Positions 2,186 through 4,351 of a stretch of DNA of 64,000 nucleotides are shown piece by piece; the stretch's first letter is position 1; each line of letters starts with the position of its first letter. The DNA comes from Saccostrea echinata (taxonomy: Eukaryota): assembly GCF_033153115.1 (NCBI RefSeq), contig NW_026889769.1, forward strand, positions 3,658,001 to 3,722,000. Direction: 5' to 3'. Under the pieces are notes generated by a model. The model was not told the DNA's origin. It did not search any database and worked only from the letters and a program-made list of their open reading frames with translations. A program made the position numbers and the translations under genes.

Positions 2186-4351
2186 TGTTACGGTGTAAAA
2201 TACGACTTTTCGGACTAATTATAAATTACTGTGTAAATTAACTTTTCGGACTATGTGTAAATTGTTATAAAAACTTTTCGTATATTTCGGCAAATGTGAT
2301 AAATTCTATAAATTCCGCACAGCTTTAATCCTACCTGAGGCAGTCTGACATGGACAGTTAATCTCCTAATTGACTTCTGTTTATATTTATTGTCACTTAA
2401 TCTTTCATCTTCTTTAATTCTATTATATACATATGTCGCTAAAATGTCATCAGTCGCTCAATAATTGTTGATACTTGATTTCTTTATACGTTCTTGTTAA
2501 TCCCTTTATTTTGTCATATCTTTGTTCAATATGTATGTTTTGTTGTTAAAAATTATAGTCAGTTGGAATCAGACCTTCGGTGCTGATACATCCCAAACTC
2601 ATGTAAAAGTATATTCCATGCTGATTCTATATAAAAGTACTAAACTATAACGCGTGTTGGCTTATTGGGGGTTTCATGAAACTGGGTTCAACAATAAGAG
2701 GAAAACTCACGGTTGGCCCAGAATTAAAATTTGACGGACAAATCCATCCCGTAATACTTGGTGTGAGAAACCTAAGGGTAACGACACCCGGGGCTGCTAC
2801 ATATATTTTGTAGTAGTCAGATCCTGGACCTCTACAAGAGCCAAATAGCGAGTTTCCCCCGGTTTTTTAGTGCTGATACACATGAAGCAGACGTACACGT
2901 GTTAGGACTAGCAATGGAATATTCTTTCCGACCGCAGTGGAGACAGAAGAAGTTCAACTTCCCTTCATGTCAGCATCCAGTGTGCGGAAGGTGTGGTAAC
3001 GTGCATCCTAACGTTTTATGTTTCGCGTTTAACCAGAAGTGCTACAGATGTCAAAGAATTGGACATTATTCTAGAATGTGCTTCACACTGATTAAAGAAA
3101 CAAAGCCAAAAAGTGAAGACAAGGGACCGGTTGCTAGCAGGAAAAACGCTCGAGACATGAAACGACTGTGCAAGTATCTCGAAAATAAACGAATTCTGCG
3201 AGAATTGCCATTCAGTTCTCTTCGGGACAGTCAGTTTCGTTCAATATGTGATAATTCGTGTGTTCTACGAACTGAGCTGAAAAATCTAAAAATTCAAATA
3301 TGCAATGCAAATAAAGAGAAAAGGAGATTGACAGCCGAATTAACAAAAGCCGAATCTGAAATCAAAAAACTTCAAAATCAAAATATGGTTATGAAAAAGA
3401 TGCAAGAACAATCTAACAATTCTAATGATAACATCTATCGTGAGAAAATTCGCAAATTGGAAGACGACGCGCACGGTGACAGAGTGATTATGGACTTAAT
3501 GCAGAGGAAATTGAACGAGATCGGAAAGGAACATAATCAGTATGTAATGAAAATTCAGGCAGAAGCTGTGAAAACAACCAAACAGTTAAGGGAAGAAAAC
3601 AAAGCCCTGCTACAGACCATCCGAATATTGGAAAATGAAAAGGATCATTTGCTCGCCTTGTTTGTGGAAAATAAACAACGATATCAACCACGTAGACATC
3701 AGGGAAGACCAAGAAGAGGCCAGTTTTATTGAAAAAAAAATCAAAACACGAGGACGTGTTTTACGCGAAGGCGGAGCATGTGTTACGGTGTAAAATACGA
3801 CTTTTCGGACTAATTATAAATTACTGTGTAAATTAACTTTTCGGACTATGTGTAAATTGTTATAAAAACTTTTCGTATATTTCGGCAAATGTGATAAATT
3901 CTATAAATTCCGCACAGCTTTAATCCTACCTGAGGCAGTCTGACATGGACAGTTAATCTCCTAATTGACTTCTGTTTATATTTATTGTCACTTAATCTTT
4001 CATCTTCTTTAATTCTATTATATACATATGTCGCTAAAATGTCATCAGTCGCTCAATAATTGTTGATACTTGATTTCTTTATACGTTCTTGTTAATCCCT
4101 TTATTTTGTCATATCTTTGTTCAATATGTATGTTTTGTTGTTAAAAATTATAGTCAGTTGGAATCAGACCTTCGGTGCTGATACATCCCAAACTCATGTA
4201 AAAGTATATTCCATGCTGATTCTATATAAAAGTACTAAACTATAACGCGTGTTGGCTTATTGGGGGTTTCATGAAACTGGGTTCAACAATAAGAGGAAAA
4301 CTCACGGTTGGCCCAGAATTAAAATTTGACGGACAAATCCATCCCGTAATA
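2186..4351 (+). mobile_element. Small non-autonomous LTR retrotransposon (2166 bp)
   Basis: Two 571-bp LTRs (2186-2756, 3781-4351), identical by eye, TGTTAC...GTAATA; 4-bp TSD CATT (2182-2185, 4352-4355); PBS-like TGGTGTGAGAA at 2759; hairpin AAAACACG-AGGA-CGTGTTTT and a purine-rich tract just before the 3' LTR. Confidence 0.95.
2914..3732 (+). CDS. Gag-nucleocapsid-like double zinc-knuckle plus coiled-coil protein (272 aa from ATG)
   Basis: CGRCGNVHPNVLC-FAFNQK-CYRCQRIGHYSRMC is a Gypsy-type paired knuckle, followed by about 130 aa of heptad-rich helix and an Arg-rich tail. The ORF is intact and fills most of the internal region. Confidence 0.85.
   Translation: MEYSFRPQWRQKKFNFPSCQHPVCGRCGNVHPNVLCFAFNQKCYRCQRIGHYSRMCFTLIKETKPKSEDKGPVASRKNARDMKRLCKYLENKRILRELPFSSLRDSQFRSICDNSCVLRTELKNLKIQICNANKEKRRLTAELTKAESEIKKLQNQNMVMKKMQEQSNNSNDNIYREKIRKLEDDAHGDRVIMDLMQRKLNEIGKEHNQYVMKIQAEAVKTTKQLREENKALLQTIRILENEKDHLLALFVENKQRYQPRRHQGRPRRGQFY

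Follow-up and report, generated by a model that had tools for sequence, protein, structure and literature searches.

A young satellite LTR retroelement of Saccostrea echinata encodes a capsid-less zinc-knuckle and predicted coiled-coil protein under purifying selection

The window analyzed here, a 64,000-nucleotide stretch of the Saccostrea echinata genome, contains a young, recently inserted copy of a non-autonomous LTR retroelement (hereinafter, the satellite), the only gene of which is maintained by purifying selection. The satellite is one member of an old group that comprises at least 10 LTR-distinct families in the same genome. The helper of the satellite is likely to be an env-carrying Gypsy element; the more specific scheme, in which the satellite is copied and inserted by this helper, with its own protein getting its own RNA into the helper particles, stands in our estimate at an even chance. 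Non-autonomous LTR elements tend to be viewed as RNAs without an active role, unless they preserve a complete Gag. A capsid-less protein under selection in about ten families would mean that the parasite of a retroelement has a conserved tool of its own.

The satellite occupies 2166 bp on the plus strand and consists of two LTRs (2186..2756 and 3781..4351, with the termini TGTTACGG...CCGTAATA) that match at 571/571 positions and a 1024-bp interior. The 3' terminus of the LTR is TA, not CA. Copies of the target-site duplication CATT are located at 2182..2185 and 4352..4355, as determined from the sequence and from the empty-site joint. The satellite interrupts a dispersed host repeat with many genomic copies (window 2045-2185 and 4352-4720), and paralogs of this repeat contain the empty site with a single copy of the four bases; the joint 2181>4352, with 4 ambiguous bases, was recovered in 3/4 runs, and one of the paralogs (L110) can be aligned through the insertion junction. 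The 5' LTR is followed by the tRNA-Ala primer-binding site (2759..2780), interrupted by insertions of 1 nt and 3 nt (TAA) and containing one mismatch, a 10-bp leader stem-loop (2792..2818) that is a candidate packaging signal, and the sole ORF of 272 amino acids (2914..3732); the stop-free frame extends over 316 codons (2782-3732), the earliest in-frame ATG being at 2914. Immediately 5' of the 3' LTR, the motif CGAGGACGTGTTTT and the purine tract GAAGGCGGAG (3749..3780) are shared by most of the sister families, and the candidate helper has a similar region. None of the capsid, protease, reverse transcriptase and integrase families of Pfam matched the satellite, which thus combines two LTRs, a primer site, a purine tract and a target-site duplication with the lack of pol, as expected of a non-autonomous LTR retrotransposon. 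The first-pass annotation, which had described identical LTRs of 571 bp bounded by CATT, an interior of 1024 bp almost filled by one intact ORF, and the absence of capsid, protease, reverse transcriptase and integrase, was accurate in all these respects; the TA terminus, the bulged primer site, the leader hairpin and the conserved core of the protein are additions to it. The search for tRNA-derived sequence in the LTRs yielded no Rfam match with an E-value up to 1 in window 2100-4450, although a very decayed promoter could escape such a search, and no tRNA gene was identified by ARAGORN in the 64-kb window.

The satellite is multicopy and has been mobile recently, in agreement with what had been proposed from the sequence alone. 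In the 923 Mb searched, the interior has at least 44 matches (40 of 74 candidates scored), and the search with the LTR produced 208 candidates, 40 of which were scored. Two full LTRs are present at 17 of the 30 best interior loci; in five of these 17, there are no LTR substitutions, and the 4-bp target-site duplications, of varied sequence, are exact in 11, contain one mismatch in three, and belong to rearranged or tandem loci in the remaining three. Several solo LTRs are also flanked by 4-bp duplications. An uninterrupted ORF of 272-273 amino acids was found at 14 of the 30 loci, and four more loci encode proteins truncated at 219-237 amino acids, so that the survey of copy number and ORF integrity is compatible with the satellite interpretation. 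Part of the satellite stretch was represented in 8 of 9 RNA runs and half of it in none, two of these runs being recorded as RNA and the others guessed; the contigs assembled from these runs cover the satellite ORF, but also flanking repeats. One locus (L129, G000:C33:27.024-27.034 Mb) is a tandem, rearranged array of a diverged satellite subfamily with frameshifted ORFs.

The integrity of the ORF reflects selection. For the 14 natural full ORFs taken together, omega was estimated at 0.30 (GY+F3X4), and the constraint of omega to 1 costs 2dlnL of 86.8. Between subfamilies, the comparison of the diverged subfamily L021 with four other copies gives dS of 0.83-0.97 and dN of 0.18-0.19. By region, the same comparison yields dN 0.047 and dS 0.63 for the N-terminus with the knuckles, dN 0.18 and dS 0.76 for the core, and dN 0.23 and dS 1.12 for the coil. 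The estimates for three sister families are 0.28 (family D, 4 ORFs), 0.43 (family C, 6 ORFs) and 0.46 (family G, 8 ORFs). In neutral simulations, the frame was still open in 0/2000 trials at a divergence of 0.4 or more.

The order of the parts in the encoded protein is knuckles, core and coil. The zinc-knuckle pair (residues 24-56, 2983..3081), C24-X2-C-X3-H-X4-C36 followed by C43-X2-C-X4-H-X4-C56, conforms to the CX2CX3HX4C + CX2CX4HX4C pattern of the Gypsy Gag nucleocapsid, to which it is homologous, and matches zf-CCHC in Pfam (E-value 6e-5); for the protein as a whole, Pfam also returned weak matches to coils. The knuckles are followed by a conserved basic helical core (residues 73-114, 3130..3255), in which R80, R84, P99 and F100 are each conserved in 90% or more of 97 sequences, a long helix (residues 115-256, 3256..3681), and an Arg-rich disordered tail (residues 257-272, 3682..3729) that contains 5 Arg, with Arg accounting for 16% of the last 20 residues family-wide. 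The N-terminal knuckles, the coil of about 130 residues and the Arg-rich tail had been recognized at first pass, the helix now being extended to 142 residues. The AlphaFold2 model, based on an alignment of 97 sequences (mean pLDDT 85, pTM 0.41), includes helices at 73-97, 105-111 and 115-256, the last one continuous, folded knuckles, and disordered ends, and contains no helical-bundle capsid domain. When two copies are folded together, the long helix is predicted to form a parallel, in-register homodimeric coiled coil with the interface at 118-253, in line with the oligomeric state that had been suggested for this protein. The score is 0.45 compared with 0.00 for the best of three controls; the runs share at least 85% of the contacts, and the dimer pLDDT is 68. 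The mark for this score was reached by 21/30 solved homo-pairs and 0/23 single chains from microbes and by 7/16 from animals, and the score may partly reflect likeness to known coils, because long coiled coils resemble many solved structures. Overall, the satellite is predicted to encode a dimeric protein that binds RNA. Searches with the model identified generic coiled coils with VIA-align (Z of 8.1 at most), nothing above 0.78 in the ESM Atlas, and nothing at an E-value of 0.001 with Foldseek against the PDB or a viral library, where the best viral rows were granulovirus CCHC proteins, aligned via the knuckles only. The core had no match among the Pfam and PDB sequences, nor by fold when searched as part of the protein model.

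The window copy is far from being alone, and the scope given to it at first pass was too narrow. The protein search of the genome produced 96 matches; among the 37 weaker ones that were examined, together with three other stretches, most are elements of 1.6-2.5 kb that encode the same protein between LTRs of their own, and six are ordinary Gag knuckles adjoining pol. Clustering of the LTRs delineated nine coding families and one relative without the ORF (L176), to which a tenth family (L237, L238) was added later. In the eight other families measured, the proteins are 20-31% identical to that encoded in the window. L176 has an interior of only 314 bp and LTRs that are 99.5% identical, and retains the target-site duplication and the hairpin. 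Beyond this genome, a profile search of 1.84 billion representatives retrieved 181 clusters with E-values of 1e-10 or better. The core motif was found in 104 of 160 proteins, the other 56 being mostly unrelated multi-knuckle proteins and some fragments. The 90 proteins that combine knuckles and core are all no longer than 376 amino acids, with the first knuckle at the median position 26, and a (weak) search for homologs among proteins of 659-2000 amino acids gave no match. Named homologs come from Saccostrea, Magallana, Pinctada and Mytilus; the closest of them (96%) is a protein of Saccostrea echinata itself. Five of the outside proteins (P0028, P0048, P0052, P0062 and P0117) are read in frame through a sequence resembling the primer site, an indirect indication of their DNA context. 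A metagenome scan returned 114 pattern matches and no confirmed relative. In the protein tree, in which the deep branches are weak (26/51 open), the families of S. echinata do not group together but are interspersed with outside sequences, suggestive of an old radiation. In P0178, a 562-amino-acid gene model from Saccostrea cucullata, the satellite protein (71%) is fused with EGF-like domains; an inserted satellite copy was probably spliced into this gene model during annotation.

The element had been interpreted as a satellite retroelement, and a likely autonomous Gypsy partner with compatible ends, primer and duplication length was indeed found, as judged from terminal matches and one chimera. 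The perfect primer site occurs at 56 places in the genome, about 50 of which were examined, with several autonomous Gypsy families among them. The candidate helper encodes gag (Ty3 capsid, Retrotrans_gag), pol and an env that matches Baculo_F (E-value 2e-15); it makes 4-bp duplications, and its primer site is of the Ala type, imperfect. Its LTR ends (TGTGACGGTGCA/CCGTAATA) agree with those of the satellite (TGTTACGGTGTA/CCGTAATA) in 10/12 and 8/8 bases. The LTR bodies of the two elements share no similarity, so that the satellite mimics only the cis signals of the helper. The most direct connection is L128, a member of the window's family with both LTRs, a 4-bp duplication and a perfect primer site, in which the primer site is followed by 1402 bp of antisense reverse transcriptase and RNase H sequence and then by the end of the satellite ORF. 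This pol insert is 99.6% identical to the helper, for which four close matches were found. At its 5' junction, there is a microhomology of 8-9 nt with the end of the primer site, as would be expected if satellite plus-strand DNA had been primed on helper RNA within one particle. Two further chimeras combine sister-family LTRs with interiors of other elements, one with an env-like ORF3: in L200, the LTR is joined to a gag-pol-env interior, and L154/L169 is similar. Other Ala-primed Gypsy families, without env, are also present in the genome.

Several other elements came to light in these searches. The window itself contains a full Gypsy element on the minus strand (30027-39411), which is flanked by an ATAC duplication and has identical 1231-bp LTRs, gag and pol; an extra ORF of 471 codons with a C2H2 zinc finger (31342-32754) separates pol from the 3' LTR. 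This Gypsy element was considered as the helper and rejected because its ends and primer site differ, the latter being presumably of the Leu type. In three env-carrying, Ala-primed elements (L223, L200 and L170), gag and pol are in frame and split by a single stop that is followed by G-[FC]-x-P-V, which suggests conserved readthrough of this stop. The three elements L188-L190, which are short and likewise Ala-primed, start like gag and have no match to pol; they possibly represent another non-autonomous type.

The leader provides a candidate for the RNA element that would be recognized by the satellite protein. Directly 3' of the primer site, the hairpin is kept in families A, C, G and H and in L176, with compensatory changes: 96.9% of the cells are paired, 4/10 pairs are doubly changed and 0/500 shuffles equal this result, which was obtained with 13 related sequences and is inflated by their kinship. 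The window sequence alone slightly prefers an alternative pairing. No such hairpin was detected in families B, D, E, F and I, although the ORF is kept there, or within the initial 110 nt of the helper leader. The core is still present in 13 of the 15 newly fetched hairpin-bearing loci, so that passengers without the ORF look rare. When selection acts on a gene of a multicopy parasite, the benefit must return to the encoding copy, and the scarcity of ORF-less elements fits this expectation; the insertion of L176 implies, nevertheless, that mobility does not always require the protein in cis. Of the roles considered for the satellite protein, that of a cis-acting packaging adaptor is the most likely, with equal chances, in our view, of being correct or wrong. 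If so, the satellite RNA would be primed with tRNA-Ala and reverse-transcribed inside the helper particles, and the helper integrase would recognize the common LTR ends and leave the 4-bp duplication; the two knuckle pairs, at one end of the coiled-coil dimer, would bind the leader hairpin of the encoding RNA, the conserved basic core would hold the bound RNA on the assembling helper Gag, and this contact between the core and Gag would overcome the preference of the helper for its own RNA. The generalization that these elements are an old group of bivalve satellites of endogenous enveloped Gypsy viruses, in which a capsid-less adaptor built of Gag-derived knuckles and a new dimeric stalk loads its own RNA, is offered tentatively, as a possibility somewhat short of probable. 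If true, satellites could travel between cells in enveloped particles, like satellite viruses, and in farmed shellfish, the link to an env-carrying helper raises the possibility of such transfer from cell to cell. How a satellite RNA outdoes the helper's preference for its own RNA becomes a testable question, for which a small protein and a short hairpin would suffice.

The primer site could be taken to imply a different function. The first, stricter pattern for the tRNA 3' end matched no genome site, and a looser one matched 28; all six sites examined are tRNA-Ala genes. The complement of the tRNA-Ala 3' end plus CCA is an 18-mer that is exact in some satellite copies, with the perfect 18-nt site present in the sister copies L008, L014, L017 and L128. 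Among 36 loci that were found by the leader hairpin regardless of the primer site, six are perfect and 30 imperfect (P = 3.5e-5 compared with 50:50 inheritance), and most of the imperfect sites share the TAA insert, across families with proteins less than 30% identical. The perfect copies are scattered tips that adjoin bulged sisters (for example, L014 next to the bulged L010), and in L007, the site itself is bulged, yet a perfect 18-mer is attached to the 3' LTR. We infer that the perfect 18-mers are tRNA copies made in plus-strand synthesis. Given that perfect sites keep arising without taking over, it is likely that the bulged copies are fitter or that repair is biased. Five loci (L138, L141, L201, L202 and L204), in which an LTR and the perfect 18-nt tRNA-Ala complement run into inverted LTR fragments or DNA of other origin, are likely to be aberrant plus-strand strong-stop products. 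A repeated tRNA cluster with Ala, Lys and Arg genes, as well as genes typed as SeC by ARAGORN, is located at L131-L136 (G000:C2:25.14-25.21 Mb).

Zinc knuckles and Arg-rich tails fit the chaperone activity of nucleocapsid proteins, and the knuckles and the Arg tail of the satellite protein would suit such work. The protein might then act mainly as a nucleic-acid chaperone, annealing tRNA-Ala to the bulged site and assisting in strand transfer, so that the element could keep a site that escapes tRNA-fragment silencing. The excess of imperfect sites with a mostly shared insert and the tip position of the perfect ones agree with this possibility, and so does the similar pattern in mouse ERVs, for which escape from tRNA fragments has been proposed (PMC7472051); the same source states that Ty3 does not copy its primer. 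The conserved bulged site is a second, independent case, after the mouse ERVs, of imperfect sites that persist despite primer copying. As the function of the protein, chaperone activity nevertheless is unlikely: nucleocapsid is already supplied by the helper Gag, the helper's own primer site is imperfect too, a 140-residue coil and a conserved core would be superfluous for annealing, and the protein would still need to enter the particle.

Also improbable, in our assessment, is an action of the protein on its own RNA prior to packaging, as a Rev-like export factor, a localization or stabilizing factor, or a shield from small-RNA silencing. The basic core, the Arg-rich tail, the oligomeric coil and the RNA hairpin would suit an adaptor to the host machinery, and the action in cis accounts equally well for the selection, but export should hardly be limiting for a short RNA without an obvious intron, and the knuckles are of the Gag type. 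Alternatively, the protein could be a competitor or inhibitor that binds the helper RNA or Gag and lowers packaging or translation of the helper RNA, with the satellite gaining a larger share of the particles. Such an inhibitor has a precedent in Ty1 p22 (PMC4599808) and could compete for the packaging signal through knuckles homologous to the helper nucleocapsid, and the satellite matches, at least 44, compare with only four close helper matches found; we nevertheless regard this as quite doubtful.

The relationship with Gag is confined to the N-terminal part of the protein. Residues 5-56, including an FRP motif before the knuckles, are colinear with the end of the helper Gag (40% over 53 amino acids). 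In the comparison of the knuckles, a Leu-primed Gag scores 39.7 bits, on a par with the helper Gag at 38.6-39.4 bits, so that the scores do not single out a donor of the knuckles. An origin of the core by colinearity with the gag-pol junction, suggestive by eye in L170, was rejected, given that none of eight gag-pol junction segments scores above -0.1 bits with the profile of residues 66-125, so that all the scores are below zero. The core and the coil match nothing in Gag-Pol, so that the satellite protein is not a plain gag deletion. The colinear alignment to gag that had been named at the outset as a refuting outcome is seen for the first 56 residues or so and fails for the core and the coil; an ordinary internal deletion of gag(-pol), with the frame open through the youth of the copies, is largely refuted and highly improbable, considering also the uniformly short homologs with N-terminal knuckles, the lack of longer ones in the weak search, omega of 0.28-0.46 in four families, and the closure of the frame in all neutral simulations at a divergence of 0.4 or more.

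By domain content, the nearest precedent is Xretpos, the protein of which reportedly contains a leucine zipper and a CCHC motif; the comparison is by description only. Xretpos and 1A11 of Xenopus are likewise LTR elements with one ORF and without pol, the 1A11 protein, again compared by description only, being a Gag-like protein of 71 kDa (PMC4585706); the passages on these elements give no indication of a helper. The TR-GAG elements of plants similarly are shorter than 4 kb, with LTRs, a primer site, a purine tract and one ORF, and without pol, but are described as encoding a capsid-type Gag domain with the knuckle downstream (PMC4350172), whereas the satellite protein lacks a capsid, begins with the knuckles and continues with a novel core and coil. 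Neither Retrotrans_gag nor UBN2 was detected in the satellite ORF by Pfam at E-values up to 1, and these domains were found in helper Gags. BHIKHARI (Bik-1 and Bik-2) of zebrafish and ENS-1/ERNI of chicken also are young non-autonomous LTR families that maintain a single ORF with a coiled coil in its product; their proteins, however, are Gags of retroviral lineages, with an N-terminal coil followed by a capsid fold (PMC12067270), in contrast to the capsid-less, Gypsy-dependent satellite. The biv-TRIM and other TRIMs are short non-autonomous LTR elements of bivalves as well, but they are given as non-coding and about 1 kb or less (PMC6934838), so that the satellite, with its 2166 bp and a selected ORF of 272 amino acids, falls outside the TRIMs. 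Helenus elements of animals have 4-bp target-site duplications, like the satellite, and are tied by the primer site to Gypsy helpers, but differ in the tRNA-like LTR and, in bivalves, in primers reported to be other than Ala (PMC10886601), whereas the satellite uses Ala and has no detected tRNA-like LTR. The mouse pair ETn/MusD includes a non-autonomous partner that uses the tRNA primer of the helper, and imperfect primer sites dominate there, with perfect ones recurring by primer copying, as in the satellite; ETn, however, is described as non-coding and has whole LTRs in common with MusD (PMC7472051), in contrast to the satellite, which has its own gene and only the LTR ends in common with the helper. 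The candidate helper shares the gag-pol-env layout with the env-carrying Ty3/Gypsy 'ancient errantiviruses' with F-type env, which are listed for Crassostrea, Magallana and Mytilus; the main text of that source contains none of the terms 'non-autonomous', 'satellite' and 'coiled', and thus covers the helpers' kind rather than the satellites (PMC13524379). In the literature covered, which excludes subscription journals and Repbase Reports, no description of the satellite family was found; the group hence consists of protein-coding non-autonomous LTR elements that are not described there, although Repbase may hold unnamed consensus entries.

The rest of the window includes diverged tandem arrays at 42199-44708 and 18430-19428, with units of about 145 bp, 34 bp and 155 bp. 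There are also exon-like frames at 51907-53818 and 19630-20235, which, judging by motifs, presumably resemble cytochrome P450 and a DEG/ENaC channel.
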